IMG/VR virus record: IMGVR_UViG_3300042562_001169
Reading direction: 5' to 3' (one strand)
Length of the DNA: 45,523 bases
Source: a virus
Lineage: Duplodnaviria; Heunggongvirae; Uroviricota; Caudoviricetes
Below, piece after piece: positions 29,260 through 43,141 of the stretch (the stretch's first letter is position 1; the number at the start of each line of letters is the position of its first letter). The translations under genes and the position numbers were made by a program. A model generated the notes under the pieces. The model was not told the origin of the DNA. It saw only the letters and a program-made list of their open reading frames with translations, and searched no databases.

Positions 29260-29263
29260 TTGT

Positions 29264-29294
29264 TTTGGTAGAATAAAAAAAAGTAATATATTTG
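29264..29294 (+). promoter_or_regulatory. Bacteroidota-type promoter
   Basis: TTTG 29264-67, 19 nt, TATATTTG 29287-94. Confidence 0.7.
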
Positions 29295-29298
29295 CCGT

Positions 29299-29559: not shown

Positions 29560-29562
29560 ATT

Positions 29563-29829: not shown

Positions 29830-29830
29830 T

Positions 29831-30217
29831 ATGAGAAAATTAATATTATTGATATTTCTTGTAATATCATCAATCTCTTTTTCTCAAGAGAAAAGATATG
29901 AATTTGAATCGATTGATGTAAGAACACCGGATGGGTGGGATATAAAAAAAATAAAAGGAGAAGTAGTTTTTTACGAAGACAGAAAAACAAATACAATTTC
30001 AATAATTACGGAACATCGTAATAATAAAATGTATGTAAAGTCTAAACAACTGTTTATTAGACAATATAATTTTTTATACACATTAGTTGATGATTACGGT
30101 AATGAATCAAGTATTAGGATAGAATTAGAGAATATAAGTGACGATTATGTAGTATTTTACTTCTATTCTGATAGACCAGGTGAGAAGTATTTTAGGTTAT
30201 GTTTGAAAAAATGTTAA
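29831..30217 (+). CDS. Secreted hypothetical protein
   Basis: Signal peptide MRKLILLIFLVISSISFSQ. Confidence 0.7.
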   Translation: MRKLILLIFLVISSISFSQEKRYEFESIDVRTPDGWDIKKIKGEVVFYEDRKTNTISIITEHRNNKMYVKSKQLFIRQYNFLYTLVDDYGNESSIRIELENISDDYVVFYFYSDRPGEKYFRLCLKKC

Positions 30218-30222
30218 AATAA

Positions 30223-30315
30223 AATGAGTTTAGAAATTGGTGTAAAATTGTTCTTCACGGTGTTAATAATCATATTTGCTTGGTATCATATTTCAAAATT
30301 CTTAAAAAGAAAATA
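30223..30315 (+). CDS. 30-aa single-TM peptide
   Basis: MSLEIGVKLFFTVLIIIFAWYHISKFLKRK. Confidence 0.45.
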
Positions 30316-30323
30316 AAAAAATA

Positions 30324-30354
30324 TTTGACTTTTATTAAACTTTTCGTAAGTTTG
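30324..30354 (+). promoter_or_regulatory. Bacteroidota-type promoter driving tRNA leader 1
   Basis: TTTG 30324-27, 19 nt, TAAGTTTG 30347-54. Confidence 0.75.
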
Positions 30355-30401
30355 ATATAATTATAGAAAACAAAGGTAGAGATACCACAAAATTTAAAAA
30401 A

Positions 30402-30524
30402 ATGAAAAACACTAATAAACATATGAACGTCGTGATTTGGAACCAACAATTTAGTAATTGTTCGTATCCGCGTATCTCGCATACAAGTTCAGATGATTTA
30501 TCAAGTGATTTAATTTTATACTAA
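30402..30524 (+). CDS. Leader peptide 1 of tRNA block 1: MKNTNKHMNVVIWNQQFSNCSYPRISHTSSDDLSSDLILY
   Basis: 40-codon ORF between promoter and terminator; contains AGTTCAG (30486-92) complementary to the terminator 5' arm. Confidence 0.75.
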   Translation: MKNTNKHMNVVIWNQQFSNCSYPRISHTSSDDLSSDLILY

Positions 30525-30551
30525 AGATTAAACCAACAATATAAGATAAAG

Positions 30552-30583
30552 TCCTGAACTCAAAAAGTTCAGGATTTTTTTTT
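30552..30583 (+). terminator. Attenuator terminator upstream of tRNA block 1
   Basis: TCCTGAACT/AGTTCAGGA plus 9 T. Confidence 0.9.
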
Positions 30584-30635
30584 GTTTCATAATAAATGAA
30601 ATACGAACTGAAATTTCAAAAAAAATGAAACAAAG

Positions 30636-30666
30636 TTTGGAAGTTAAAAAAAAAGGATTACCTTTG
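30636..30666 (+). promoter_or_regulatory. Bacteroidota-type promoter immediately upstream of tRNA-Ser
   Basis: TTTG 30636-39, 19 nt, TACCTTTG 30659-66. Confidence 0.75.
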
Positions 30667-30715
30667 TCCCATCAAAATAAAGGATATGTTATTTGAAATA
30701 TTGGTAAGAAAAAAT

Positions 30716-30803
30716 GGAAGGGTAAGCCAAGTCGGTCTATGGGTCGCGGTCTTGAAAACCGTTGGGGGTAACACCCGTGTGAGTTCGAGTCTCACCTCTT
30801 CCG
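30716..30803 (+). tRNA. tRNA-Ser(TGA)
   Basis: GGAAGGG/CTCTTCC, GCGGT-CTTGAAA-ACCGT, long variable arm, G73. Confidence 0.92.
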
Positions 30804-30807
30804 CGGG

Positions 30808-30895
30808 TTAGTTAAATAGTTTAATCCACACCCAAAAAAGAATGTCCGGAGCGTGTCCGGGGCGAACGTAATTGTGGTAACCGTTCATTAACTAA
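30808..30895 (+). ncRNA. Structured spacer RNA (two hairpins plus a possible pseudoknot)
   Basis: TTAGTTAA/TTAACTAA closing stem; TCCGG/CCGGG; GAACG/CGTTC; CCACA/TGTGG. Confidence 0.4.
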
Positions 30896-30904
30896 AAAAT
30901 ATTT

Positions 30905-30976
30905 TGCCCCTTCGTATATCGGTTAGTACACATGGTTTTGGTCCATGCGGGGGGAGTTCGATTCTCTCAGGGGTAA
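30905..30976 (+). tRNA. tRNA-Gln(TTG)
   Basis: TGCCCCT/AGGGGTA, CATGG-TTTTGGT-CCATG. Confidence 0.92.
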
Positions 30977-31030
30977 CAAAGGGTTCGGTGGAACCCCAAG
31001 AGTAGGTGATGAGCCTATGTCCACCAAAAC

Positions 31031-31098
31031 GCCGAGTGGTCCGGGACCAGAGACGGTTCATATCTGACTCTAGAATGGCTCAACACCATTACTCGGTA
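31031..31098 (+). tRNA. Degenerate tRNA with CAT anticodon (Met-like)
   Basis: GCCGAGT/ACTCGGT, CGG-TTCATAT-CTG, T-loop CTCAACA, reduced D-arm. Confidence 0.55.
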
Positions 31099-31154
31099 CG
31101 GATGCACTCAGATTTGTACGTTTGAGGAGTGGGAAGAATTAAAATGTGCAAATT

Positions 31155-31225
31155 GCCTTGTTGGCGTAACGGAAGCGTATTTGTTTTACATGCAAAGGGA
31201 AGTGGTTCGATTCCACTACGAGGTA
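31155..31225 (+). tRNA. tRNA-Val(TAC)
   Basis: GCCTTGT/ACGAGGT, TTTGT-TTTACAT-GCAAA. Confidence 0.9.
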
Positions 31226-31271
31226 CTAGAATGGGTTCACACTACACTGTAGGGAGTTAGGAAGTGTAATT

Positions 31272-31352
31272 GGGTAGCAAAAGTCGTTCGGATACGGCAA
31301 CCTGACTGTAAATCAGGTCTTCACGGGAGTGGTTCGAGTCCACTGTTGCCCA
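31272..31352 (+). tRNA. tRNA-Tyr(GTA)
   Basis: GGGTAGC/GTTGCCC, CCTGA-CTGTAAA-TCAGG, long variable arm. Confidence 0.9.
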
Positions 31353-31355
31353 CTA

Positions 31356-31504
31356 TGATAATGGTTTTCTCTATATTGGATGTCGACAATTCAATATGGG
31401 TTCAAGAATTCATCACCCCCCTGAAAAGGGAATGTGCCGAGGGCCTCGTAAAACTACGATTAAGCACTTAAGATTGGGGCGAGACGGGTACTCCAACATT
31501 ATTA
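31356..31504 (+). ncRNA. Structured spacer RNA
   Basis: TGATAATG/CATTATTA and TTGGA/TCCAA closing stems; internal CCC/GGG, TCGTA/TACGA, GTGC/GCAC. Confidence 0.4.
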
Positions 31505-31509
31505 TAATT

Positions 31510-31582
31510 GGGTCTTTTGTATAGATGGTTCGTACGCTAGTCTGAAGAACTAGAGGATAGGGTTCGATTCCCTGAGGACCCA
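31510..31582 (+). tRNA. tRNA-Phe(GAA)
   Basis: GGGTCTT/AGGACCC, CTAGT-CTGAAGA-ACTAG. Confidence 0.92.
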
Positions 31583-31712
31583 CAAACAAGGTGACGCTAC
31601 AGTCGTAAGATTCCGGAATCGAGAAGACAAAAAGCCTAAGTGTAAAGATGAGCTCCTACATCCTTGGACTACAACAAGCCATTTTGCGGTGAAAATCGTT
31701 GTAGTCAAAAAT

Positions 31713-31784
31713 TGCCTTGTCGTATAAAGGTTATTACGGATGACTGTTAATCATCTTATGGAGGTTCGAGTCCTCCCGGGGCAG
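31713..31784 (+). tRNA. tRNA-Asn(GTT) copy 1
   Basis: TGCCTTG/CGGGGCA, GATGA-CTGTTAA-TCATC. Confidence 0.9.
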
Positions 31785-31916
31785 CGAGGTTACCTTACAC
31801 CTCCTATATGGCACTCGGTCCGTTAAGCCGGGGAAGTGAGGTAAAAAAAAATGACTACTATTAAGGAATGATACGAGCCTGCAAAGTTCGAAAATAGTCA
31901 GGTGGTAGTCAAAATT

Positions 31917-31988
31917 GGACTTGTAGCTCAGAGGAAGAGCGGATGGTTGTTAATCATCGGGTCGGGATATCGTAATTCTCCAAGTCCG
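31917..31988 (+). tRNA. tRNA-Asn(GTT) copy 2 with atypical T-loop ATCGTAA
   Basis: GGACTTG/CAAGTCC, GATGG-TTGTTAA-TCATC. Confidence 0.8.
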
Positions 31989-32101
31989 CAAAACCTTAAA
32001 TGTGGTATCAGATACTGACAGCTCCTGCTTAAGAAGGGGTGATGGGTGTGAAAGCTGATTGAAAAGGGTACTTCTCAAACCCACATTGATAGGTGATATA
32101 T

Positions 32102-32175
32102 GGTGATTGTAGCTGAATTGGTAAAGCGTCTGATTGTGGTTCAGGAGATTGTGGGTTCGAGTCCCACCTTTCACA
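32102..32175 (+). tRNA. tRNA-His(GTG) with encoded G-1 opposite A73
   Basis: TCTGA-TTGTGGT-TCAGG; acceptor with two T.T mismatches. Confidence 0.85.
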
Positions 32176-32190
32176 CTTAAATTATGTGTT

Positions 32191-32448
32191 ATGGATGAAG
32201 ATGGAAAAATTGAAGAATTAGAGGGTCTAATTGTAGATTTAAGATTTGATTTAAAGAAATCCAAAGATAAAGAGTTGATTTACTTGGACATTTTATCCAA
32301 CATTGATAATTCGTTAAAAGTGTTGTTCAAGAGGGAACAAGAAAATGAGAGATTTAATCTTGGTGATGATGTTAATTACCGAGAATGTATTGAGAATCTA
32401 AAGTCGGCGTTGGACGAATATAAACGAGTTTATAAATTACGGTTATGA
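32191..32448 (+). CDS. Hypothetical protein (likely start 32191)
   Basis: MDEDGKIEELEG...; the upstream ORF extension lies inside tRNA-His. Confidence 0.7.
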   Translation: MDEDGKIEELEGLIVDLRFDLKKSKDKELIYLDILSNIDNSLKVLFKREQENERFNLGDDVNYRECIENLKSALDEYKRVYKLRL

Positions 32449-32498
32449 AAAAGGTATTGGATAATCTTTGAGGTCTGCTAAACAACAGACTCAAGATT

Positions 32499-32687
32499 AT
32501 GAGTGTAAACACAAACAGAATGAAACTGAACAACGCGACTTGTTCAAAAGATTACAGATTGATTTGGTTAAAGTTTGAATACTCCCCTTATTGGGATGAG
32601 GGTGTTTATTACAGAAAAGGACAATTTTCTCACAAATACAGAGAACATAAAACTTGGAAGTATAACCGAAAAACTCAATGGAAGTAA
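32499..32687 (+). CDS. Hypothetical basic protein
   Basis: 62 aa, WKYNRKTQWK end. Confidence 0.65.
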   Translation: MSVNTNRMKLNNATCSKDYRLIWLKFEYSPYWDEGVYYRKGQFSHKYREHKTWKYNRKTQWK

Positions 32688-32689
32688 AA

Positions 32690-32753
32690 TGTGTTGTTCC
32701 CGTGAGAGGGGGGTATGAAATACGAGGTAGGTTATATCATCCTACACAACACA
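32690..32753 (+). ncRNA. Four-way-junction spacer RNA
   Basis: TGTGTTGT/ACAACACA enclosing TCCC/GGGG, GTAT/ATAC and GTAGG/CCTAC. Confidence 0.4.
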
Positions 32754-32775
32754 GAGGAGTTCTTAACCTCAAAAT

Positions 32776-32867
32776 GGTCAGGTGGCGGAATTGGTAGACG
32801 CAAAGGAATGTCTAAGGTTGGTATCATTCATTCTGTCCAATTACAGGTTCGAGACCTGTCCTGACTA
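32776..32867 (+). tRNA. tRNA-like gene with Leu-type D-arm and a non-canonical 14-nt anticodon loop
   Basis: GGTCAGG/CCTGACT, ACAGG-TTCGAGA-CCTGT, GAATG/CATTC stem with loop TCTAAGGTTGGTAT. Confidence 0.6.
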
Positions 32868-32874
32868 CAAAATT

Positions 32875-32947
32875 GTCTCCATCGTTCAACTGGAAAGGAC
32901 TTATCTTTACGACAGATAGAATAGGGGTTCGAATCCTCTTGGGGACA
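32875..32947 (+). tRNA. tRNA-Arg(ACG)
   Basis: GTCTCCA/TGGGGAC, TATCT-TTACGAC-AGATA. Confidence 0.9.
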
Positions 32948-32949
32948 CA

Positions 32950-33041
32950 AAAGTAGAGACAACGAGGATGATGCGCAAATTCATTAATTAGGTTCGAATC
33001 CTAAGCCGGGGGTTTATCCCCCGGCATTGAGACTCTACTTT
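32950..33041 (+). ncRNA. tRNA-like element with a displaced T-arm
   Basis: AAAGTAGAG/CTCTACTTT enclosing TTAGG-TTCGAAT-CCTAA and an 8-bp GC hairpin. Confidence 0.45.
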
Positions 33042-33046
33042 CATTT

Positions 33047-33132
33047 GGAGAGTAAAACAATCAGGGTATTGTCACCGCCTGCTAAGCGAGTGGTTCGGTT
33101 AAATGGATGGATTTCGAGTATTCTGCTCTCCG
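33047..33132 (+). tRNA. tRNA-Ser(GCT)
   Basis: GGAGAGT/GCTCTCC, CTGCTAA loop, long variable arm, G73; weak T-stem. Confidence 0.8.
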
Positions 33133-33148
33133 CAGAAAATTAAAGATT

Positions 33149-33244
33149 ATGGAAGAAAAAGAGAAAGAAAAATTTTGGTATGAAGCAGGGTCTTTCATAA
33201 CTAAAAAAGGTATTAAAGTAACTCTTTATTTAGAGGTAAAATAG
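33149..33244 (+). CDS. 31-aa hypothetical peptide
   Basis: MEEKEKEKFWYEAGSFITKKGIKVTLYLEVK. Confidence 0.45.
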   Translation: MEEKEKEKFWYEAGSFITKKGIKVTLYLEVK

Positions 33245-33249
33245 ACATT

Positions 33250-33444
33250 ATGAAAACATTTGAAACAAAAGAATTCTTAAATGAATTAGATAAGATGGGG
33301 GTGGTTTATACAATTGATTCTAACCCGAGTCCTGAAAAAATTGAGAGATTAAAGAAAAGTATTGAAAAAAGAGATTTAAGAATTAAACAAATGGTGGAAG
33401 ATTATAATTCCGGTAAATTTGATGAAGTGATTAAATCGTTATAA
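33250..33444 (+). CDS. Hypothetical protein
   Basis: 64 aa ORF. Confidence 0.65.
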   Translation: MKTFETKEFLNELDKMGVVYTIDSNPSPEKIERLKKSIEKRDLRIKQMVEDYNSGKFDEVIKSL

Positions 33445-33446
33445 AA

Positions 33447-33559
33447 TAATTAGTTCCCCCGTTTGTTCCGTCAAGGGGTATAAAGAGACATCAATCAACG
33501 GAACCCCAAATGGAGTCCTTGCCTTAGTAGGATAAAGATGTTATAAACTCAACTAATTA
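33447..33559 (+). ncRNA. Pseudoknotted spacer RNA
   Basis: TAATTAGTT/AACTAATTA; CCCC/GGGG with loop GTTCCGT pairing to ACGGAAC; ACATC/GATGT; TCCT/AGGA. Confidence 0.5.
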
Positions 33560-33563
33560 AATT

Positions 33564-33636
33564 CTAGATGTGGGAAAGTTGGTAATCCGCTACACTTGGA
33601 CCGTAGAGACCGCTGGTTCGAGTCCAGCCATTTAGA
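33564..33636 (+). tRNA. tRNA-Pro(TGG) copy 1
   Basis: CTAGATG/CATTTAG, CTAC-A-CTTGGAC-C-GTAG. Confidence 0.85.
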
Positions 33637-33700
33637 CGAAAGGAAACTGTTACTAATTTATTGGACCTCATAGTGGGGGGAATCGTAGAATTAGAAAATT

Positions 33701-33774
33701 CGGGGTGTGGACTAAAGGCTAGTCGCCTGGTTTGGGACCAGGACATCGAGCAGATTCGATTTCTGCCACCCCGA
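33701..33774 (+). tRNA. tRNA-Pro(TGG) copy 2
   Basis: CGGGGTG/CACCCCG, CCTGG-TTTGGGA-CCAGG. Confidence 0.9.
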
Positions 33775-33840
33775 CAATTAATTAATATTATTTACTTTTT
33801 TTGAACTTATAGTATATTTATAATATAAATAAGATACATT

Positions 33841-34413
33841 ATGACTACGAGTTTGAAAGAAGATATATTAAAATTAAGGAAAGAAGGTAAAAATTATAAT
33901 GAGATTTGCGAAATATTAAATTGTTCTAAAGGGACTGTTTCATATCATTGTAATAATAATAGTGTAGGGGGTAACTATGTTAGTAATGTTAGAGAAAAGT
34001 TAACAGATGTTGAAATTGAAGAGTTAAACATATATTATAAAGACCATTCAATTGAGGAATGTATAATTAAATTTAATCTTGGCCGGTCAACAGTTATTAA
34101 ATACACGAAAAACAAATATGTTAAATTAAGTGTAGATGAATTAAGAGATAGGAATTACAATAAAGTTAAAACACATAGACAAAGGTTAAAAGAAAAATCT
34201 ATTAGTTATAAAGGTGGTTCGTGTGAAAAATGTGGATATAATAGATGTAATTCGGCGTTAGAATTCCATCATTTAGACCCTAATAAAAAAGATTTCGGGA
34301 TTGGAACATATAGTGTTTTATCTTGGGATAAAATAAAAGAAGAATTAGATAAATGTATTTTATTATGTGCGAATTGTCATAGAGAATTACATTACAATTT
34401 ACTCGGTCAGTAG
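33841..34413 (+). CDS. HTH-HNH homing endonuclease; 3' end overlaps tRNA-Ile
   Basis: HTH (NYNEICEILNCSKGTVSYH); CEKCG..LEFHHLDP..LLCANCHRELH. Confidence 0.9.
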   Translation: MTTSLKEDILKLRKEGKNYNEICEILNCSKGTVSYHCNNNSVGGNYVSNVREKLTDVEIEELNIYYKDHSIEECIIKFNLGRSTVIKYTKNKYVKLSVDELRDRNYNKVKTHRQRLKEKSISYKGGSCEKCGYNRCNSALEFHHLDPNKKDFGIGTYSVLSWDKIKEELDKCILLCANCHRELHYNLLGQ

Positions 34414-34476
34414 CTCAATCAGTAGAGCATTCGCCTGATACGCGAAAGGTAGTAGGAGCGTAGCCTACCTGACCGA
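34404..34476 (+). tRNA. tRNA-Ile(GAT) with atypical T-loop AGCGTAG
   Basis: CGGTCAG/CTGACCG, TTCGC-CTGATAC-GCGAA. Confidence 0.82.
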
Positions 34477-34558
34477 CAAATGTGGCTCACTGATTTTGAT
34501 TATTAAGCTCAAATTACTTATATTTTGAGCCAAATAATAGAGTAAAATGAGCCCAATC

Positions 34559-34629
34559 GCCCCCAAAGCTTTAAGGTGAAGCACGATACTTTTAATATCG
34601 GGAAGTTGGTTCGATACCACCTGGGGGTA
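34559..34629 (+). tRNA. tRNA-Lys(TTT)
   Basis: GCCCCCA/TGGGGGT, CGATA-CTTTTAA-TATCG. Confidence 0.88.
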
Positions 34630-34637
34630 CAAAAAAA

Positions 34638-34902
34638 ATGTTTAACTAATAAATCAAAAGTTGTGAGTAGTGTTACTTGGTCAGTATTTAGTGCTGAATA
34701 TTTTAGTGAAGTAAAAAAAGAATTAGTGTGGAGAAAACAAACTTTTCTTTATATGGGAGATTTATCCAACGTAGATATGACAACAGATTGGAGATTTAGT
34801 GATGTTGAAGGAAAAAGAAGAAAGTGTAAATTTTTAGGGTTAATAGATAATCCGGAATTTCCACTAAAAGGACCAATTAAAACATATAGAAATAATGAAT
34901 AA
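34638..34902 (+). pseudogene. Hypothetical gene with an out-of-frame ATG (possible 1-nt insertion, or a downstream GTG start)
   Basis: ATG 34638 reads M-F-N-stop, but the adjacent frame stays open to 34902. Confidence 0.35.
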
Positions 34903-35401
34903 GTACGGAAAAACATTGGTTTTGGATTCAAGTTATATGCCAAGGTCTATCATAAACACTGAAAGGGCTTTTGTAATAACTTATAAAGGTAATGCAAGTG
35001 TAATTGCCGAACATCCGGAATCATTTAATCTAATCAATCCTGAATTAGATATTAAGAAACCTTCAATCATAAGGGTTTATAAATACGTGAATCAACCAAT
35101 TCATAAAGTTCCATTAAGTAGAGAGAATGTTTATCGTAGAGATAACTTTGAGTGTGTTTACTGTGGGTGTGATAATCGTAAGACATTGACATTAGACCAC
35201 GTAATACCCCAATCTAAAGGGGGTAAAGACGCGTGGGACAACTTGGTTACCGCTTGTAGAAGATGTAATGGTGAGAAGTCCAATTTGACTTTGGAAGAGT
35301 ATGGTAAAGAAATCCCCCAACCAAGACGACCACACTATTTAATGATGATGAAACAAGTTCATTATGTTCCAAAAGAATGGGAAGATTATTTGTTTATTTA
35401 A
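34895..35401 (+). CDS. HNH endonuclease (bacterial-type)
   Basis: SRENVYRRDNFECVYCG...LTLDHVIPQSKGG..WDNLVTACRRCN. Confidence 0.9.
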   Translation: MNKYGKTLVLDSSYMPRSIINTERAFVITYKGNASVIAEHPESFNLINPELDIKKPSIIRVYKYVNQPIHKVPLSRENVYRRDNFECVYCGCDNRKTLTLDHVIPQSKGGKDAWDNLVTACRRCNGEKSNLTLEEYGKEIPQPRRPHYLMMMKQVHYVPKEWEDYLFI

Positions 35402-35419
35402 AAAATAGTTATATCTTTG
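35389..35419 (+). promoter_or_regulatory. Bacteroidota-type promoter inside tRNA block 1
   Basis: TTTG 35389-92, 19 nt, TATCTTTG 35412-19. Confidence 0.7.
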
Positions 35420-35435
35420 TCAAAAATTAATAGAT

Positions 35436-35597
35436 ATGACAATGGAACAAGAAATTTTAGGTTTTACAAATTGGTTATACACTAACAATTGGAAACTAAT
35501 TGGTGATGGTATGTGTTTGAATCTTGAAACAAAGGAAATTGGTTATATTAACGAACTAATGGTCGAATATGAACTAATTGCCGAATATAAAGAATAG
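35436..35597 (+). CDS. Hypothetical protein (53 aa)
   Basis: MTMEQEILGFTNW...; downstream of the promoter. Confidence 0.6.
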   Translation: MTMEQEILGFTNWLYTNNWKLIGDGMCLNLETKEIGYINELMVEYELIAEYKE

Positions 35598-35602
35598 AAA
35601 TT

Positions 35603-35845
35603 ATGATACCAAAAAATGAAATGGTTGAAGGTTGGTATAAGGGTTTCTGTAGAAACAATTATATGGCTTTTTGGGACGGAGAGAAGTTCCAATACATCCG
35701 ATATAAGTTCGGGTATCGTTTGGATACCATAGAACATTTTGAAGATGTTAAAGAACAAAGATTAGATGGGTTTGTCCCGGTTGAGAGAATTGAAAGATTA
35801 ACTCCGGAGGAACAATGGAATGAAAAAAATGAAATAGGATATTAA
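35603..35845 (+). CDS. Hypothetical protein
   Basis: 80 aa ORF. Confidence 0.7.
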   Translation: MIPKNEMVEGWYKGFCRNNYMAFWDGEKFQYIRYKFGYRLDTIEHFEDVKEQRLDGFVPVERIERLTPEEQWNEKNEIGY

Positions 35846-35846
35846 G

Positions 35847-36446
35847 ATGATAGATAATATAAAAGAAATCAAAGAATTACTGAATTTCTCGGACAAAAAC
35901 GATTTCTATATGTTATACGTTTTCAAGAGAAAAAAGGACCAACCTGAGGGTGAGAGAGATAATCACCAATCGGTTAGAACAATCAAAACATATTGTATTG
36001 ACAGCATTGAACATCTTGATAAGAGATACGATGAAATCAAACAATTATGTGAGATGTTCAAGGCAAGAGCTTACATTCACGTTCAGAAACAAAACCATAT
36101 GGATGTTTCTTTGGAAATGATGATGTCGTTAGCTGAGAGAATTAAAAATGGTGTGAAAAACCAAAAGGGTTTATTTGATTCCGTTGTGGGTCAAATCAAA
36201 ACACAAGAAAAAAGATGGATTGTAGATATTGATACAACTGACCCTGATTTTTTATATGAAGTTGCGGATTTTATTAAAGACCTTAAACCAGTTGGTTTTA
36301 AAGTTGAAAAAGTAATACCTACCAAAAATGGTAGACATTTAATCACATCTCGATTCGATGTTAAAACATTTAGTGAAAAATACCCGGATGTTGATATTCA
36401 AAAGAAAAATCCAACATTATTGTATTATCCAAATAGTTTAGATTAA
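35847..36446 (+). CDS. Hypothetical protein with AEP (primase-polymerase)-like motifs
   Basis: WIVDID and PTKNGRHLI. Confidence 0.55.
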   Translation: MIDNIKEIKELLNFSDKNDFYMLYVFKRKKDQPEGERDNHQSVRTIKTYCIDSIEHLDKRYDEIKQLCEMFKARAYIHVQKQNHMDVSLEMMMSLAERIKNGVKNQKGLFDSVVGQIKTQEKRWIVDIDTTDPDFLYEVADFIKDLKPVGFKVEKVIPTKNGRHLITSRFDVKTFSEKYPDVDIQKKNPTLLYYPNSLD

Positions 36447-36625
36447 ACAACACATAGAAAAACGGACAATAGAGGCGTAAATTGGTTAGTCCACGCCCCG
36501 ATATAGCATTAGCCTATATTGTGACGACTCTAAACACCCCAAGAAGTGTTATGTTTTGTTGAGTAAGGTAAGAGAAGGTTGAAAGTCCAAAACATACTTA
36601 TCCCAACTTGGTGGATGTGTTGTTT
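36445..36625 (+). ncRNA. Repeated structured RNA motif, copy 1
   Basis: 11-bp closing stem; shares CAAGAAGTGTTATGTTT(T)GTTGAGTAAG with 39891-40077. Confidence 0.65.
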
Positions 36626-36634
36626 TTATTAAAT

Positions 36635-36704
36635 GGTCTTGTTGGTCGTGGCGACCGGTTAGTCTGCAAAACTAACAGAGTGAGTTCGATTCTCACCGAG
36701 ACCT
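36635..36704 (+). tRNA. tRNA-Cys(GCA)
   Basis: GGTCTTG/CGAGACC, TTAGT-CTGCAAA-ACTAA, U73. Confidence 0.9.
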
Positions 36705-36708
36705 CAAA

Positions 36709-36860
36709 TAACATAATTGTTTAACCACGAAAATGGGCTTGAACAACCGAATGGAAGACGCGTTTCTTACTAGGGAGTAAAATAGAAAATTAGATTCGGA
36801 GGCATCCGGGTTGTGTGAAAAAGTAGGGAGCTCCCGGCAGGGACTAAAATAATTGTGTTA
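36709..36860 (+). ncRNA. Structured spacer RNA
   Basis: TAACATAATT/AATTGTGTTA closing; TTTCT..AGAAA, TACT/AGTA, TCGGA/TCCGG. Confidence 0.4.
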
Positions 36861-36866
36861 TTATAT

Positions 36867-36938
36867 ACGTCATTGGTGAAATGGTTATCATTTTAGTCTC
36901 CAAAACTAAAGTTTCAGATTCGAGTTCTGAATGGCGTG
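36867..36938 (+). tRNA. tRNA-Trp(CCA)
   Basis: ACGTCAT/ATGGCGT, TTAGT-CTCCAAA-ACTAA, G73. Confidence 0.9.
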
Positions 36939-37010
36939 CAAGAAGACGGAGAGTGAGTCAAGGGTAATTCCGTTATGGTTATCCCTCGAGGGTCTCTCCT
37001 GAAGAAATAT

Positions 37011-37084
37011 GGATTTTGAAGTACAATTGGACGTGCGACCGGTGTAAGACCGGGAGGATATAGGTTCGAATCCTATCATTATCC
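37011..37084 (+). tRNA. Atypical tRNA-like gene (loop TGTAAGA, G33; nominal TAA)
   Basis: GTAC/GTGC D-stem, CCGG/CCGG anticodon stem, ATAGG-TTCGAAT-CCTAT; weak acceptor. Confidence 0.5.
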
Positions 37085-37088
37085 CAAG

Positions 37089-37236
37089 AAACAGACCTAT
37101 AACTTACGTCAGTGGTAGTGTAGGGGTGAGGTTCGGAGTAATCAACCAAACCAAGAAACCGCCGAGGGTAAACACGAGTATGATGCTTGTCTAGTCCCCT
37201 AAGACTGAAATATCGGAGAATCCTCATTGTCTGTTT
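37089..37236 (+). ncRNA. Structured spacer RNA with pseudoknot potential
   Basis: AAACAGAC/GTCTGTTT; CAGT/ACTG, AGGGG/CCCCT, TGAGG/CCTCA, ACGAGTA/TGCTTGT. Confidence 0.4.
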
Positions 37237-37246
37237 TTTTAAAATA

Positions 37247-37443
37247 AAAAGTTTAACAACCGGGGTGTCCATACTCTAAAAAATTAATGGACTAGCGTGT
37301 TGATAGGGGTGACCTCCCAATAGTAGCACCGTAGTAATACGGTAAAGGATAGATAAGGACTAGTACGCCGGTGACGAACACGACGAATTCCGGAATTCCC
37401 ATTGTAGCCCGCTACGACCCGAGGGCGGGGTTGTTAAACTTTT
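37247..37443 (+). ncRNA. About 200-nt structured RNA closed by a perfect 15-bp stem
   Basis: AAAAGTTTAACAACC/GGTTGTTAAACTTTT; GTCCA/TGGAC, CGTGTT/AACACG, ACCGTA-GTAA-TACGGT. Confidence 0.6.
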
Positions 37444-37461
37444 TTCTTTATATTTATCAAT

Positions 37462-37806
37462 ATGAAAAACTTTAAATTTTTAATGGATAAACTCAAGGAC
37501 TATAATTTAGATTCTGAGGATTATGCGGTTTTTGGTTCCGCACCATTAGTAATCACCGGAATGATTAATGATGTTAATGACTTAGACGTAATTATACGTC
37601 CATCAAAATGGGAATTTAATGATGAAGGTGAATATAGAACCAAAGATATTGAATTTTTCAATAATTGGCCCGAATACGATATTGATGACTTAATTGATAA
37701 TCACTCATTCGTTTATAATGGGGTTCGATTCATAAATCCAAAGAAAGTTATTGAATATAAAAAATCCCTTAAAAGGAATAAAGATAAAAATATTTGGGAT
37801 AATTAA
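37462..37806 (+). CDS. Minimal nucleotidyltransferase-like protein (Pol-beta superfamily)
   Basis: YAVFGS...NDLDVII. Confidence 0.65.
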   Translation: MKNFKFLMDKLKDYNLDSEDYAVFGSAPLVITGMINDVNDLDVIIRPSKWEFNDEGEYRTKDIEFFNNWPEYDIDDLIDNHSFVYNGVRFINPKKVIEYKKSLKRNKDKNIWDN

Positions 37807-37878
37807 AATAAATCTTACCAATAATTGACTTTTTACAAAACTAACGTATATTTATTAGAAATTACAATAACACAACAA

Positions 37879-37953
37879 ATGCAAACTTTAAACATATTAC
37901 TTACGATAGCGGGAACTGAGGGTAGAGATACAACTTGGAAGCAGATGGTATGA
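37879..37953 (+). CDS. Leader peptide 2 of tRNA block 2: MQTLNILLTIAGTEGRDTTWKQMV
   Basis: 24-codon ORF; AGATGG (37943-48) complementary to the terminator 5' arm; TTG-N19-TATATTTA promoter-like element at 37825-37854. Confidence 0.75.
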   Translation: MQTLNILLTIAGTEGRDTTWKQMV

Positions 37954-37982
37954 TATATATTTAAGTAAAAAAAATATTCAAA

Positions 37983-38014
37983 AATCCATCTTCAAAAAAG
38001 GTGGATTTTTTTTT
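37983..38014 (+). terminator. Attenuator terminator upstream of tRNA block 2
   Basis: AATCCATCTT/AAGGTGGATT plus T-run. Confidence 0.9.
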
Positions 38015-38023
38015 GTCTTAAAG

Positions 38024-38054
38024 TTTGGTATATTGAAATAAAAGATTATCTTTG
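38024..38054 (+). promoter_or_regulatory. Bacteroidota-type promoter
   Basis: TTTG 38024-27, 19 nt, TATCTTTG 38047-54. Confidence 0.75.
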
Positions 38055-38075
38055 TAAGGAATTAAAAAACAAGAT

Positions 38076-38186
38076 ATGGACGATACAAGAGAAGAGTTGG
38101 TTATGGATTACTCACCAATATTAGGAGTAACCTACGGATTAAAAAATGTTTTGGTTGAGGATGATTCAACAGAAAAAGAAGAATAA
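38076..38186 (+). CDS. 36-aa hypothetical peptide
   Basis: MDDTREELVMDYSPILG...; lies between two near-identical promoters. Confidence 0.5.
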   Translation: MDDTREELVMDYSPILGVTYGLKNVLVEDDSTEKEE

Positions 38187-38202
38187 AAAAAAGATTAAAA
38201 AG

Positions 38203-38233
38203 TTTGGTATAATGAAATAAAGTATTATCTTTG
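38203..38233 (+). promoter_or_regulatory. Bacteroidota-type promoter upstream of tRNA-Glu (near-copy of 38024)
   Basis: TTTG 38203-06, 19 nt, TATCTTTG 38226-33. Confidence 0.75.
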
Positions 38234-38280
38234 TACCATCAAAATGAAACAAGTTAATTGACATATTGGTAATATAAAAC

Positions 38281-38352
38281 GGCCCTATCATCTATCGGTT
38301 AGGATATTTGGTTTTCATCCAAAAAAGTCGGGTTCGACTCCCGGTGGGGCTA
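38281..38352 (+). tRNA. tRNA-Glu(TTC)
   Basis: GGCCCTA/TGGGGCT, TTTGG-TTTTCAT-CCAAA. Confidence 0.92.
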
Positions 38353-38417
38353 CAAGGGTTATGAACAACGTGTCCCCTTAATTTCACAATGTTGACAATT
38401 CGGAAAGACGAGTAAAT

Positions 38418-38487
38418 GGGTCAGATGACAACGGCAGTTCAACTGATTTGCAATCAGATTGTTTGGGTTCGACTCCCACTGTATCCA
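38418..38487 (+). tRNA. tRNA-Ala(TGC), irregular acceptor stem
   Basis: CTGA-TTTGCAA-TCAG; G3.U70 wobble retained. Confidence 0.65.
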
Positions 38488-38587
38488 CAAAAAACAGAAA
38501 GACAGAATACGGGAAGTCACTACCCGGGAAACACGGTTCTTTCTCCTTCAATTGTTATAGGATAGTCACCTTTGAATTGAAAATTTT

Positions 38588-38659
38588 GGTCTATTTGTCT
38601 AACGGCTAGGATGCTACCCTGTCACGGTAGAGGCGAGAGTTCGATTCTCTCATAGACCG
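38588..38659 (+). tRNA. tRNA-Asp(GTC)
   Basis: GGTCTAT/ATAGACC, CTACC-CTGTCAC-GGTAG, G73. Confidence 0.93.
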
Positions 38660-38708
38660 CAAAACTCAAGATTAATTACCTTGAGAATGGAAGGTTCGAA
38701 ACTTCCGA

Positions 38709-38817
38709 TTGATTATAGTGTAATGGTGCACACCATCCCCCCAAAACAGGGTTCGAGTCCCTGGAACGTGGGCTTCTCAGGGGAAGGGAGATTAAGGTTC
38801 GAATCCTTACTAATCAG
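38709..38817 (+). tRNA. tRNA-like gene with a large insertion in the anticodon loop containing a second T-arm
   Basis: TTGATTA/TAATCAG, GTGT/GCAC, TAAGG-TTCGAAT-CCTTA; insert CAGGG-TTCGAGT-CCCTG. Confidence 0.55.
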
Positions 38818-38822
38818 CAAAT

Positions 38823-38892
38823 TGCGTTAAAGTGTAAAGGTTGCATCTAAGTCTCATAAGCTTGGGGGGTGGTTCGAGTCCACGTTACGCTA
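38823..38892 (+). tRNA. tRNA(CAT), Met-type
   Basis: TAAGT-CTCATAA-GCTTG; acceptor with mismatches. Confidence 0.75.
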
Positions 38893-38906
38893 CTAAGAAT
38901 AAACAT

Positions 38907-38979
38907 CGTGGGATAGAGCAGTTGGCAGCTCGTGTGGCTCATAACCATAAGGTCGGAGGTTCGAGTCCTCCTCCCGCTA
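38907..38979 (+). tRNA. tRNA-fMet(CAT) (initiator-like)
   Basis: C1 mismatched with T72, GAGC/GCTC D-stem, TGTGG-CTCATAA-CCATA. Confidence 0.85.
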
Positions 38980-39001
38980 CTAATTTAATAACTAAATCCG
39001 T

Positions 39002-39175
39002 ATGGCTACAGTAGCAAAAAGGTCAAGACAACAAAGAGTTCTTGAAATGTTGGAGAAACAATTAAAAAATGGTTTAAAAACCGAAAAAGGAACACGAGAT
39101 GTGAAGGTTCCATTAACTGATTCTGATAAGAAGAGAATCGTTAAAGAGATTGAGAATCTCAAAACAAAAGTATAA
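39002..39175 (+). CDS. Basic hypothetical protein (57 aa)
   Basis: MATVAKRSRQQRVLEMLEKQLK... Confidence 0.65.
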   Translation: MATVAKRSRQQRVLEMLEKQLKNGLKTEKGTRDVKVPLTDSDKKRIVKEIENLKTKV

Positions 39176-39224
39176 ACTTATAAGTTTAAAATTTAAATTT
39201 ATTTTCAAGGTATAAGTTTAAAAT

Positions 39225-39298
39225 GCGGGTATGGTGTTTAACGGCTAGCACGTGGGCCTTCCAAGTCTGAAGTTTCGGTTCGAATCCGAATATCCGCT
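39225..39298 (+). tRNA. tRNA-Gly(TCC)
   Basis: GCGGGTA/TATCCGC, TGGGC-CTTCCAA-GTCTG, U73. Confidence 0.92.
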
Positions 39299-39300
39299 CA

Positions 39301-39728
39301 AAAATAGTGAAAAAGTAATTATATGAAGTAACCTTCGGGGACACTGCCGGAACCCTTTAACACATAGGTAGGTGAAAAGTATGATGAAAGACAACGGCGC
39401 ACCGGTCAACCATCTGGGAGTAATTACCCATAACGGATGTGGAGATGAAGTCACAGCTCCTTAGGACCGCAATGGTGAAAAATTTGGTCGAACTATTTTA
39501 ATTTTTATATTCTGTTTGACGTTAGACAGTATGGTGCCCTGGATATCTCGGAAACACAAGTGGGGAAGGAAGTTACTCACCACATACAGAAAACATAGAT
39601 TCGTATGTCTAACGAAAGGTTAAGTGAAAAGGTCGGCATTCGTTCCAACGTTGCGACAGACTATAATAGGGGAGTGAAGGGGTTTGGGCCTTCACACTTA
39701 ATTACCAATCTATGTCGGTAACAGAATA
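39301..39728 (+). ncRNA. Large non-coding structured region (two domains of about 200 nt)
   Basis: AAAATAGT/ACTATTTT and TATTCTGTT/AACAGAATA closing stems; long-range GTTAGACA/TGTCTAAC and CATAGATT/AATCTATG. Confidence 0.6.
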
Positions 39729-39732
39729 AATT

Positions 39733-39804
39733 GGCTCCATCGTTCAACGGATAGGACATTTCTCTTCTAAGGAAATTATCGGGGTTCGAATCCCTGTGGA
39801 GTCA
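39733..39804 (+). tRNA. tRNA-Arg(TCT)
   Basis: GGCTCCA/TGGAGTC, TTTCT-CTTCTAA-GGAAA. Confidence 0.92.
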
Positions 39805-39812
39805 CAACAATT

Positions 39813-39885
39813 GCCTTGGTGGTGGAACGGTAGACACGGAAGTCTTAGGAACTTCATATTGAGGGTTCGATTCCCTCCTGAGGTA
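39813..39885 (+). tRNA. tRNA-Leu(TAG) with short variable loop
   Basis: GCCTTGG/CTGAGGT, GAAGT-CTTAGGA-ACTTC, variable region ATATT. Confidence 0.85.
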
Positions 39886-39890
39886 CAAAA

Positions 39891-40077
39891 TTTACGCATA
39901 GAAAGACAAACAAAATACAAGCCACAACAGTTAATGCACTACAATGTATTACAACACTATCAAGAAGTGTTATGTTTGTTGAGTAAGATAAAGAAAAACC
40001 TGGACGTGAGTTAGGTATGGATTAAGGTGAGAGTCGTAACCTCCATAGAATTATCCCCATCTTGAGGGATGTGTAAA
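39891..40077 (+). ncRNA. Repeated structured RNA motif, copy 2
   Basis: TTTACGCAT/ATGTGTAAA closing; core block shared with 36445-36625. Confidence 0.65.
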
Positions 40078-40081
40078 AATA

Positions 40082-40235
40082 TACATTATCATAACTCGGT
40101 GTGATACACCGCCAACTACCTCCTTAAACAACGTGGGAACTGCGGTTCTCCCAATGTGGCCGAAGTGATGATGTAAAAAGAAACAGAGAAAAATCTGGAC
40201 AGCGAAAGCAGGATAGACCTTGGACAGTTTCTTTT
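40082..40235 (+). ncRNA. Two further stem-closed spacer elements
   Basis: TACATTATCAT/GTGATGATGTA (40082-40175); AAAAGAAAC/GTTTCTTTT (40176-40235). Confidence 0.4.
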
Positions 40236-40288
40236 AGTAGTTTAAGAGACAGAGCTGACTTCTACTTTAAAAAAATGCTCTGCGACAG

Positions 40289-40361
40289 GCTGGTAAAACA
40301 TAAATGGTGATGTGCTTGTTTTGTACACAAGATAATAGGGTTCGATTCCTTATACCAGCTC
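40289..40361 (+). tRNA. tRNA-Thr(TGT)
   Basis: GCTGGTA/TACCAGC, CTTGT-TTTGTAC-ACAAG. Confidence 0.9.
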
Positions 40362-40426
40362 AATTTTTTTTATTGTTCGAATCTGACTTTTGACTCTTTT
40401 TGTGATATTTATAATAAAGAGAAGTT

Positions 40427-41140
40427 ATGAAAAAATGGACAGAAGAAGAATTTAATTTATCAGTGAATTACATAAATAATGGGTTGACTTATGATGAAAT
40501 TGCGGAATTCTTAAATAGAACTAAAAAATCGGTTAGAATAAAGTTAAATAAATTTGGTGTTTATGTTAAACCAAAAATTTATACTATTGAAAAAAAATGT
40601 ATTCATTGTAATAATGATTTTATATCGTTTATTAGTGAAGAAAGAAAATATTGTTCTCAGTCGTGTTCCGCAAAAGAAAATAATAAATTATATGTTAAAC
40701 GACAAAAAACCGAATTTAATGTAGAAGTTAAAAATCTGAATAAACAAATTAAAAATTGTTTGAATTGTGGGTGTGAAATTAATGATTCAACAAAAACATA
40801 TTGTAATCAAATTTGTTTTCACGAAAATCGTAAAAAAAATATTTTTAATTTAATCAATAATAATGATACTACATTAAATCCAAGACAATATAAAAAATAT
40901 CTTATTGAAAAATATGGTAATAAATGTATGGAATGTGGATGGGGTGAAAAAAACCCAAAAAGTAATACAATACCAATTGAGTTAGAACATATCGACGGAA
41001 ATGGGTCTAACAACACATTAAGTAATTTAAAATTATTATGTCCTAATTGTCATTCTTTAACTCCAACATATAAGGGGGCGAATAAAGGTAATGGAAGACA
41101 TAATAGAAGAGAAAGATACCAAGATGGTAAAAGTTATTAA
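40427..41140 (+). CDS. HTH-Zn finger-HNH homing endonuclease
   Basis: LTYDEIAEFLNRT..SV; CxxC..YCSxxC repeats; IELEHIDGN..NN.LSNL.LLCPNCH. Confidence 0.9.
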   Translation: MKKWTEEEFNLSVNYINNGLTYDEIAEFLNRTKKSVRIKLNKFGVYVKPKIYTIEKKCIHCNNDFISFISEERKYCSQSCSAKENNKLYVKRQKTEFNVEVKNLNKQIKNCLNCGCEINDSTKTYCNQICFHENRKKNIFNLINNNDTTLNPRQYKKYLIEKYGNKCMECGWGEKNPKSNTIPIELEHIDGNGSNNTLSNLKLLCPNCHSLTPTYKGANKGNGRHNRRERYQDGKSY

Positions 41141-41143
41141 AAT

Positions 41144-41223
41144 AGTTAGGTGGCGGAATTGGATAGACGCGGCCCCGTTGAGGGGTTTAACCGGAATTAC
41201 AGGTTCGAGTCCTGTCCTGACTA
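41144..41223 (+). tRNA. tRNA-like gene paralogous to 32776, non-canonical anticodon arm
   Basis: AGTTAGG/CCTGACT, GCCCC-GTTGA-GGGGT (5-nt loop), ACAGG-TTCGAGT-CCTGT. Confidence 0.6.
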
Positions 41224-41227
41224 CAAT

Positions 41228-41430
41228 TGAGATAGAGATACTCAATAGATTTGGCATCGTTTCTTAAACAAAGATGTAGCTGACGCCTCAAACGGTTTTA
41301 CAGAGGGGGTCTTAGGGTTAATAGGGAGCCTACCAACTCACCTCCTAGTAATGGTTGACTTTTTAAGTGGTAAGACACGTAGGGTTTTTGAATAGGAAAA
41401 ACTAAGAATATCTACACCAAAATAATCTCA
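41228..41430 (+). ncRNA. About 200-nt structured spacer RNA
   Basis: TGAGAT/ATCTCA, TTTGG/CCAAA, GTCTTA/TAAGAC, TAGG(G)AG/CTCCTA, GTTTTT/AAAAAC. Confidence 0.45.
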
Positions 41431-41443
41431 TTGGTGGAAAAAT

Positions 41444-41516
41444 GTCCTCGTGGTGAAACGGTAAACACAACGGTTTTAAGCATCGTAAGCTGTAGGTTCG
41501 ACTCCTACCGGGGATA
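41444..41516 (+). tRNA. tRNA-Leu(TAA) with short variable loop
   Basis: GTCCTCG/CGGGGAT, ACGGT-TTTAAGC-ATCGT, variable region AAGCT. Confidence 0.85.
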
Positions 41517-41582
41517 CTAATATTTAATATTATGAAAAACAACCAACCCAACTCCACTTAGTTTTAGCTATTAGCTAAAATT

Positions 41583-41813
41583 ATGACTCAGAAATTGAGA
41601 ATTTGGAGAGTAGTACCCGTTAGTAACGGTGTTCAGGCTCCCACTTTTTTCGTAGAAACTACGGAAGAAGGACGTGAGAAGGCAGAGGAATCTGCGATTA
41701 AACAAGCACGAATTAAATCGGGCTTAGGAAAGTTCAAACAATGGAACTTTAGATTGGAGAAACTCTCTGTGAGGGTTGATAAATTTGGTAGGTATGTGAA
41801 ACACCACCAATAA
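41583..41813 (+). CDS. Hypothetical protein
   Basis: 76 aa ORF. Confidence 0.65.
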   Translation: MTQKLRIWRVVPVSNGVQAPTFFVETTEEGREKAEESAIKQARIKSGLGKFKQWNFRLEKLSVRVDKFGRYVKHHQ

Positions 41814-41852
41814 GTTGACATATGTTTGTGGGTTCATTAAAAACCCATAATT

Positions 41853-41924
41853 GGTCTCGTAGCTCAAAGGTGGAGCAGTTCGCTCATAACGAAAAGGATG
41901 GGATATCGTGATTCCCCGAGACCA
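41853..41924 (+). tRNA. tRNA(CAT), probable Ile2 (lysidine type), atypical T-loop ATCGTGA
   Basis: GGTCTCG/CGAGACC fully paired, TTCG-CTCATAA-CGAA; the Ile2 call is an inference. Confidence 0.75.
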
Positions 41925-42036
41925 CAGCGGATATTTGAGTGTAAGCAAGTACAATATCTATCGTTAGACCCTTACAGGTGATGAACGGTGGTCTTAGGGT
42001 CATTCCTAAGTGTAGATACCAGTTAACTCTACATAG

Positions 42037-42064
42037 AACCTTCAAGGAAACTTGGGGGTTTTTT
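42037..42064 (+). terminator. Terminator closing the tRNA array
   Basis: CAAG-GAAA-CTTG core with extended stem and T-run. Confidence 0.7.
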
Positions 42065-42204
42065 ATTTACAATAAAATAAATCATCCTTATATTTATAAC
42101 TGAAACCTTGTTGCTGAGGTTCTCGTGTCCACAGAGGCATTTGAGTTGGAATTGATACCAACGAAGAGAAGTTCAATAAACATAAAAAATAAAATAAGGA
42201 AATT

Positions 42205-43068: not shown

Positions 43069-43096
43069 AAAATAAACAAATAACAAGGTTTCATAA

Positions 43097-43126: not shown

Positions 43127-43141
43127 GATTTTATATTAATT

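Follow-up and report, generated by a model that had tools for sequence, protein, structure and literature searches.

Candidate leader-peptide attenuators upstream of two tRNA gene blocks in a large uncultured freshwater phage

The IMG/VR virus record IMGVR_UViG_3300042562_001169 (Caudoviricetes; the whole stretch of 45,523 nucleotides (nt) is called the window below) contains 24 tRNA genes on the plus strand at positions 30716-41925, called by ARAGORN and confirmed by Rfam. The genes form two blocks, and each block is preceded by a leader cassette. An earlier reading made from the letters alone (below, the sequence-only reading) described, ahead of each block, a promoter, a short leader open reading frame (ORF) and a strong intrinsic terminator. 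This architecture is confirmed for both cassettes, and its coordinates are given below. The sequence evidence points with good confidence to both cassettes being ribosome-mediated leader-peptide transcription attenuators, whose sensor codons list the tRNAs of the downstream block.

30324-30354, plus strand: leader 1 promoter, TTTG-N19-TAAGTTTG, of the Bacteroidota sigma-A type, found by pattern search and invariant in 6 relatives
30375-30388, plus strand: conserved mini-hairpin GGUA-GAGA-UACC in the 5' untranslated region (UTR) of leader 1
30402-30524, plus strand: leader ORF 1, 40 codons, MKNTNKHMNVVIWNQQFSNCSYPRISHTSSDDLSSDLILY; the sensor zone is codons 2-25 and the tail codons 26-40
30420-30428, plus strand: segment 1, CAUAUGAAC, the candidate anti-antiterminator, pairing with segment 2 in the minimum free energy (MFE) fold and the pair table
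30486-30495, plus strand: segment 2, the antiterminator strand, in which AGUUCAG (30486-30492) pairs with CUGAACU (30554-30560)
30550-30583, plus strand: leader 1 intrinsic terminator (segments 3 and 4), hairpin 30550-30576 followed by a T-run
30716-36939, plus strand: tRNA block 1, Ser(TGA), Gln, Val, Tyr, Phe, Asn, His, Arg(ACG), two Pro, Ile(GAT), Lys, Cys, Trp(CCA)
37824-37854, plus strand: leader 2 promoter, aTTG-N19-TATATTTa, near-consensus, read from the sequence and conserved in aligned relatives
37879-37953, plus strand: leader ORF 2, 24 codons, MQTLNILLTIAGTEGRDTTWKQMV
37943-37948, plus strand: candidate antiterminator strand of leader 2, AGAUGG, pairing with CCAUCU (37986-37991) and overlapping the last codons and the stop codon
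37983-38014, plus strand: leader 2 intrinsic terminator, hairpin 37983-38007 followed by a T-run
38281-41925, plus strand: tRNA block 2, Glu(TTC), Asp, Met(CAT), Gly, Arg(TCT), Leu(TAG), Thr, Leu(TAA), Met(CAT)

The tRNA lists of the sequence-only reading are right with small corrections. Genes for Met (31031-31099), Ser(GCT) (33047-33133) and Ala (38418-38486) are called by ARAGORN at a relaxed threshold only. The first of them has a clear orthologue in the relative L091, a Met gene called there at the default threshold (65 of 69 positions identical); the Ser(GCT) and Ala genes are diverged or weak. An additional second Asn(GTT) gene at 31917-31988 and two odd class-II tRNA-like genes, described below, were not listed. 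The two cohorts, which had been called complementary, are nearly but not perfectly so, given the 'Gln(TTG)' call in block 2. Block 1 is broken up by HNH endonuclease ORFs, other ORFs and an internal promoter at 35389.

The terminated leader transcripts would be about 220 nt (leader 1) and 150 nt (leader 2) long. Conservation of the leaders as ORFs, on which the sequence-only reading depends, is seen for both: leader 1 has 36-40 codons in at least 17 distinct relatives and leader 2 has 23-24 codons in at least 12, with third-position synonymous changes such as AAC/AAT, CAA/CAG, GTC/GTA, GCG/GCA and GGA/GGT/GGC. Both leader ORFs are preceded by an A-rich stretch, which we take to be the typical start-site feature of Bacteroidota. 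The nearly invariant nucleotide sequence of the leader core raised the possibility that the leaders are non-coding RNAs. This was rejected, as synonymous changes occur elsewhere in the ORFs and the invariance partly comes from the search pattern.

The 11-mer GGTAGAGATAC occurs twice, in the 5' UTR of leader 1 (30375-30385) and inside leader 2 (37921-37931), where it reads G-R-D-T. It forms the GGUA-GAGA-UACC mini-hairpin and is near-invariant in relatives; 0.46 matches are expected in the window. It is not present in A-, B- and C-type leaders.

The codons of each leader were compared with the default ARAGORN calls by tRNA box, with Ser, Leu and Arg split by codon family and ATA kept separate. 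The sensor zone comprises the codons at which a ribosome stalled with the codon in its A site leaves the antiterminator strand uncovered. The P values for coverage and zones refer to all windows of the same length in the long ORFs of the phage itself. The match of a leader to its own block is 0.69 for leader 1 and 0.70 for leader 2, and that to the other block 0.28 and 0.26, respectively. Every box of the own block has at least one codon in the leader (13 of 13 for leader 1, P=0.007; 9 of 9 for leader 2, P=0.005). The matching codons make up 21 of the 24 sensor-zone codons of leader 1 (P=0.0006) and 13 of 17 in leader 2 (P=0.011), and 6 of 15 and 3 of 6 codons in the respective tails. Under the relaxed tRNA set, 23 of the 24 codons in the sensor zone of leader 1 match.

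The match extends to isoacceptors: CGT goes with Arg(ACG), AGA with Arg(TCT), TTA and CTN with Leu(TAA) and Leu(TAG), and ATA is separated from ATT/ATC. As the sequence-only reading had it, leader 1 contains no Ala, Glu or Gly codons and uses CGT, ATT and ATC, and leader 2 contains AGA and two ATA codons. The Arg codon of leader 1 is CGT, which accounts for 11% of the Arg codons of the phage, and not AGA, which accounts for 76%. Synonymous codons in the sensor zone of leader 1 are rarer and more GC-rich than expected (P=0.013). Leader 1 also has eight Asp, Leu or Thr codons, which the sequence-only reading did not mention and whose tRNAs belong to block 2; six of these codons are part of the tail and thus come after the antiterminator strand.

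The GC content of the window is 30%, and the window is found near-complete in many lake-water metagenomes. Similarity searches of phage DNA in GenBank gave no match to it and no cultured close relative. It encodes a DnaK/Hsp70 homologue of 622 amino acids (aa) at 6715-8583, which shares 59-67% identity with genes from uncultured phages 630-735 kb in size. These DnaK relatives, the Bacteroidota promoter consensus and the occurrence in lake metagenomes point to an uncultured, large phage as the source, with a host among freshwater Bacteroidota. For comparison, 76 loci were fetched with a 199-aa ORF inside block 1, and 55 more came from two DNA-pattern searches. Cassettes were defined by a strict single-hairpin terminator, the longest closed ORF starting with ATG and ending at most 95 nt upstream of it, and the tRNAs up to the next terminator. 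This gave 81 cassettes in 132 sequences. Several cassettes of the relatives have a tRNA content different from that of the window.

L001, leader MKTMNTNTNLDTPTTPNGDAGTIRMSSDIIFE: block Pro, Asn, Asp, Gly, Thr; matching codons N4, P2, D3, G2, T7
L001, leader MRTILLHTLLLNRQGLLRRLMR: block Leu(TAA), Gln, Arg(TCT), Leu(TAG); 8 Leu, 4 AGA and 1 Gln codons
L002, leader MKTTIQHMVFSKQQIVCWYERMLLCSSDVIVG: block Glu, Val, Phe, Lys, Cys, Trp, Tyr, Met, Gln, Arg(ACG), His, Ser
L055, leader MMNIDLNKFNPAPANGDGNLMSS: block Pro, Asn, Asp, Gly, Ala; 2 Ala codons and no Thr codon
L043, a single leader of 48 codons: 21 tRNAs; 18 of 19 boxes covered

The codons of the leaders follow the tRNAs when these move. Between leader 1 of the window and the A-type leader of L002, Asn and Pro left the block and Glu joined it; the codon counts change from 5 to 0 for Asn, from 1 to 0 for Pro, from 3 to 1 for Ile and from 0 to 1 for Glu. 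Thus the L002 leader contains a Glu codon and has no Asn or Pro codons, whose tRNAs sit elsewhere. Between the B-type leaders of L001 and L055, the Thr tRNA is replaced by Ala, and Thr codons go from 7 to 0 and Ala codons from 1 to 2. The Arg(TCT) gene of L023 is in block 1; AGA is gone from its leader 2, and two AGA codons are present in its leader 1. The leader 2 variant of L080, whose block has no Leu tRNA, has lost both TTA codons (2 to 0).

These shifts were also assessed by permutation, and the comparative tests suggested with the sequence-only reading gave the outcomes that it predicted. Within families, codon counts covary with block membership (Sum D 27 against 0.8 +/- 6.2; 0 of 20,000 permutations), which is the tracking of moved tRNAs by leader codons. 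Among ten architecture-distinct cassettes, nine have all boxes of the block covered by the own leader, and the summed own match, 6.32, exceeds that of all 200,000 permuted leader-block pairings (3.92 +/- 0.52; P about 5e-6). In 41 non-redundant cassettes the match is 74% in the sensor zone versus 40% in the tail. Ordinary ORF ends upstream of terminators near tRNAs, taken as a control, have 0-2 matching codons.

The leader 1 RNA has a predicted folding energy of -48.6 kcal/mol (z=-5.1), and its MFE structure contains the 1:2 and 3:4 helices. The 1:2 helix (30420-30428 with 30487-30495) has 8 of 9 pairs; these are mostly invariant, with one CG/UG/UA series. When the RNA is cut before segment 4, it folds into the antiterminator 2:3 (30486-30492 with 30554-30560), which in the window is AGTTCAGG. 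The 7-bp core of this helix is paired in all but one cell among 18 leader-1-, A- and B-type sequences, that is, completely in 17 of 18. Three of its pairs show changes on both sides and none shows changes on one side only; controls with slid positions are 17-42% paired. In the clade of L003, L023 and L120, the 5' arm of the terminator changes from ACU to AUC together with a change from AG to GA in segment 2, and the 3' arm of the terminator is unchanged. Since the 5' arm and segment 2 change together while the 3' arm stays constant, the pattern speaks specifically for the 2:3 helix. The terminators of leader 1 are 92% paired, with compensatory pairs.

The terminators of leader 2 are paired in 98.5% of cells and also show compensatory changes. 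The candidate antiterminator of leader 2, 6 bp long in the window, reaches 8 bp in most relatives, and 96% of its cells are paired; RNA folding revealed no convincing 1:2-type helix in this leader. Duplex-energy shuffles of single cassettes (z from -0.2 to -3.5) were dropped as proof of an antiterminator, being too weak alone.

The following mechanism is suggested for leader 1. Transcription would begin at the leader promoter, and a ribosome would translate the leader. If codons 2-25 are decoded fast, the ribosome would reach the tail and cover or separate segment 2, so that the 3:4 terminator forms and transcription ends. Scarcity or lack of charging of any tRNA in the cohort would make the ribosome stall upstream and mask segment 1; the 2:3 helix could then form, and the polymerase would enter the tRNA block. 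If the leader is not translated, 1:2 and 3:4 would form, leading to termination. Leader 2 may be a simpler version: its candidate antiterminator strand runs across the final codons and the stop codon, and is thus ideally placed to be masked by a ribosome that terminates there. We infer leader translation, coupling of transcription and translation, ribosome stalling and the read-through response. The net effect would be negative feedback from decoding capacity to tRNA supply, separately for each cohort; slower decoding of the block codons probably leads the phage to make more tRNA. The idea that each leader is a multi-codon sensor, put forward in the sequence-only reading, thus gains support from ORF conservation, codon tracking, the pairing permutations and the compensatory changes in leader 1.

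Both terminators of the window are followed by further promoters. A search with the pattern TTTG-N18-20-TAnnTTTG found 13 sites versus 1.66 expected, including those at 30324, 30636, 38024 and 38203.

30636-30666, plus strand: block 1 promoter, TTTG-N19-TACCTTTG, a consensus site between the terminator and tRNA-Ser, giving block 1 its own transcription input
38024-38054 and 38203-38233, plus strand: two consensus promoters flanking an acidic ORF of 36 aa, between the leader 2 terminator and tRNA-Glu

The sites at 30636, 38024 and 38203 are perfect and conserved, and a -7 box is present downstream of the terminator in most leader-1-type and leader-2-type cassettes. An attenuated block with no promoter of its own after the terminator is a feature absent from the window and present in L043, L080, L090 and the B-type cassettes of L001, L002 and L055. 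In L043 and the B-type cassettes, 11-15 nt separate the terminator from the first tRNA, and there is no -7 box; L080 and L090 carry a homologue of leader 1 of the window 47 nt from the tRNAs, again without a -7 box. As these gaps contain no promoter, their tRNAs are reachable by read-through only. In the window, the downstream promoters mean that read-through can only add to promoter-driven transcription. The earlier claim that the leaders gate the two blocks therefore stands as to the attenuator design, but 'gate' is too strong for the window, where consensus promoters follow both terminators. The attenuator element probably provides full gating of the block in some phages and a supplement to the basal promoter in the window, where it would act as a demand-dependent input on top of that promoter.

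The conserved 36-aa acidic ORF, MDDTREELVMDYSPILGVTYGLKNVLVEDDSTEKEE (38076-38186), comes with a consensus promoter of its own (38024) and lacks a terminator. Counted by hand, 22 of the 35 codons of this ORF fall into boxes of block 2. L102, L109 and L117 do not have the ORF, and their gap measures 95 nt. The tRNA promoters (30636-30715 and 38203-38280) are copies of a repeated module of about 80 nt, AAGTTTGG..TAYCTTTGTnCCATCAAAA..GTTATTTGAAATATTGGTAA, that also occurs before several tRNA sub-blocks of relatives; the conserved stretch 3' of its -7 box may serve in processing or regulation. In most relatives (L003, L005, L013 etc.), a palindrome, GACACTTTT-ATA-AAAAGGTGT, lies in the spacer of the leader 2 promoter. 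It looks like an operator and has been lost in the window.

Several observations weigh against attenuation, or limit its role. The conserved perfect promoters 3' of both terminators, together with that at 35389 inside block 1, could mean that tRNA levels in the window are set largely without read-through, and the 273-nt gap between the leader 2 terminator and tRNA-Glu holds a promoter, the 36-aa ORF and a second promoter. The codon match over the whole ORF, taken alone, is moderately significant (P=0.04 for leader 1, 0.03 for leader 2). The relatives share ancestry, and independent events are few, with about five leader families and some 6-8 tRNA moves. The antiterminator strand of leader 1 lies 30-39 nt upstream of the stop codon, and a ribosome at the stop would not cover it directly. 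The short duplex proposed for leader 2 in the window (only 6 bp) consists of pairs that are invariant and show no covariation, and its energy is not clearly better than that of shuffles (z=-1.4). Some metatranscriptome contigs span the leader 1 terminator (four freshwater runs, positions 29800-42200; assembled contigs only, many from related strains); they could be read-through RNA or DNA carry-over and are uninformative on regulated termination and on the starts, ends and levels of transcripts.

One alternative is that the leaders are independent micro-protein genes that merely lie upstream of the tRNA blocks, with the blocks transcribed from their own promoters and the codon resemblance arising by coincidence or shared ancestry. 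This would account for the consensus promoters after both terminators in the window and most relatives, for the good conservation of the peptides and for the moderate strength of some single-window statistics. However, it is very unlikely: leader composition shifts with tRNA gain and loss in relatives, and leader replacements stay mostly within the amino-acid set of the block. Moreover, the matches keep to the zone ahead of the antiterminator strand, compensatory changes keep the antiterminator pairing, and some relatives have no promoter between the terminator and the tRNAs. It is also unlikely, if slightly less so, that the cassettes are attenuators sensing general amino-acid starvation or host translation stress rather than the supply of phage tRNAs, the codon match then reflecting the tRNAs worth boosting. 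The trp, his and thr attenuators, which sense charging, use the same mechanism, and from established knowledge of attenuation, stalling is blind to whether a tRNA is missing or uncharged. On the other hand, extra tRNA is no remedy for a lack of amino acids, and the matching at the level of isoacceptors points to tRNA species rather than to amino acids.

Finally, the terminated leader transcripts could themselves be the functional product, as trans-acting small RNAs or peptides, with the terminators just ending them. There is a precedent in the trp attenuator of Sinorhizobium, whose RNA and peptide are reported to act in trans (PMC7968998). The unusually strong structure of the leader 1 RNA, the conserved GGUAGAGAUAC hairpin common to both leaders and the strong promoters and terminators of both cassettes are consistent with such a role. 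It would leave unexplained both the tracking of cohorts by codons and the asymmetry between sensor zone and tail, and as a replacement for attenuation it is the least probable of the three, close to negligible; being compatible with attenuation, it could coexist with it.

Read as attenuators, the cassettes resemble trpL, hisL, thrL, leuL, pheL and ilvL, the classical leader-peptide attenuators of enterobacterial amino-acid biosynthetic operons. They share with these the short leader ORF with regulatory codons upstream of the antiterminator strand, in leader 1 the mutually exclusive 2:3 and 3:4 helices with a candidate 1:2 helix, and the intrinsic terminator before the regulated genes; the setting of termination or read-through by ribosome position would, going by the sequence, be shared as well. 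However, the targets here are phage tRNA genes and not biosynthetic enzymes, and in place of a run of codons for one or two amino acids, each of 4-19 tRNA specificities is represented in the leader by one codon or a few. The output, tRNA, would directly relieve the shortage sensed. Furthermore, a second promoter often follows the terminator, and the elements are encoded by a phage. Leaders reporting several amino acids are known in thrL (Thr and Ile) and ilvL (Ile, Leu and Val), but these cover two or three related amino acids and control biosynthetic genes, whereas the coverage here reaches 13 boxes in the window and 18 in L043.

T-box riboswitches (RF00230) also control read-through according to the state of a specific tRNA. 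They differ in that their specifier codon and T-box sequence bind the uncharged tRNA directly, that they act independently of translation, and that they control aminoacyl-tRNA synthetase and amino-acid genes. An Rfam scan of positions 29000-43500 (E<=0.1) gave no match to the T-box covariance model, only tRNAs and a few weak unrelated hits. The similarity of 30516-30583 to the Rfam family Thr_leader (28 bits against a gathering score of 55, E=0.08) was set aside as a chance resemblance of terminators. What is new here is the use of tRNA genes as the target, the leader that serves as a many-codon inventory including isoacceptor-specific codons, and the output that would relieve the shortage; the mechanism itself is known. 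A full-text literature search, with subscription-only papers outside its scope, turned up no report of tRNA genes being controlled by attenuation or leader peptides.

The array contains other unusual genes. Two odd paralogous class-II tRNA-like genes, one per block (32776-32867 and 41144-41224), have a Leu-like body with a long variable arm and abnormal anticodon loops; the one at 41144-41224 is called 'Gln(TTG)' by ARAGORN and has G at position 33. At the same position, relatives have 8-nt loops with the 'anticodons' GAAA, GTAA, TAGT and TAAT (ARAGORN). Gln codons number two in leader 2 of the window type and zero in the L023 and L080 variants, whose blocks have no odd class-II gene. Three HNH endonuclease genes lie within the array (33841-34413, 34895-35401 and 40427-41140, the last in block 2), and two of them have an N-terminal helix-turn-helix domain. 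These are probably homing endonucleases and may be what shuffles the tRNA genes among relatives. Downstream of the array, on the minus strand, a gene at 43142-44956 encodes a 604-aa protein with long Pro-Thr(-Gln/Glu) linker repeats between repeated domains, which matches phrog_15511.

The reasons why large phages carry near-complete tRNA sets are debated, with compensation for codon usage, degradation of host tRNAs and escape from anticodon nucleases among the proposals. To our knowledge, the regulation of phage tRNA genes is essentially unknown. If the cassettes act as suggested, this would be the first known attenuation of tRNA genes and a direct feedback loop from decoding capacity to tRNA supply, and it would offer a testable readout of the tRNAs that become limiting during infection. 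The leaders would be natural multi-codon stall reporters and a sequence signature for functional tRNA operons in metagenomic phage genomes; the signature could also help to assign ambiguous tRNAs, such as Ile2 with the CAU anticodon. More broadly, we lean towards the view that huge phages may possess a tRNA-supply homeostat, in which every tRNA block would stand under a leader listing its tRNAs codon by codon, down to isoacceptors. Loss of one host or phage tRNA species, through anticodon nucleases, host shut-off or a mismatch in codon usage, would induce the block that replaces it, and leaders and blocks would co-evolve under shuffling by homing endonucleases.

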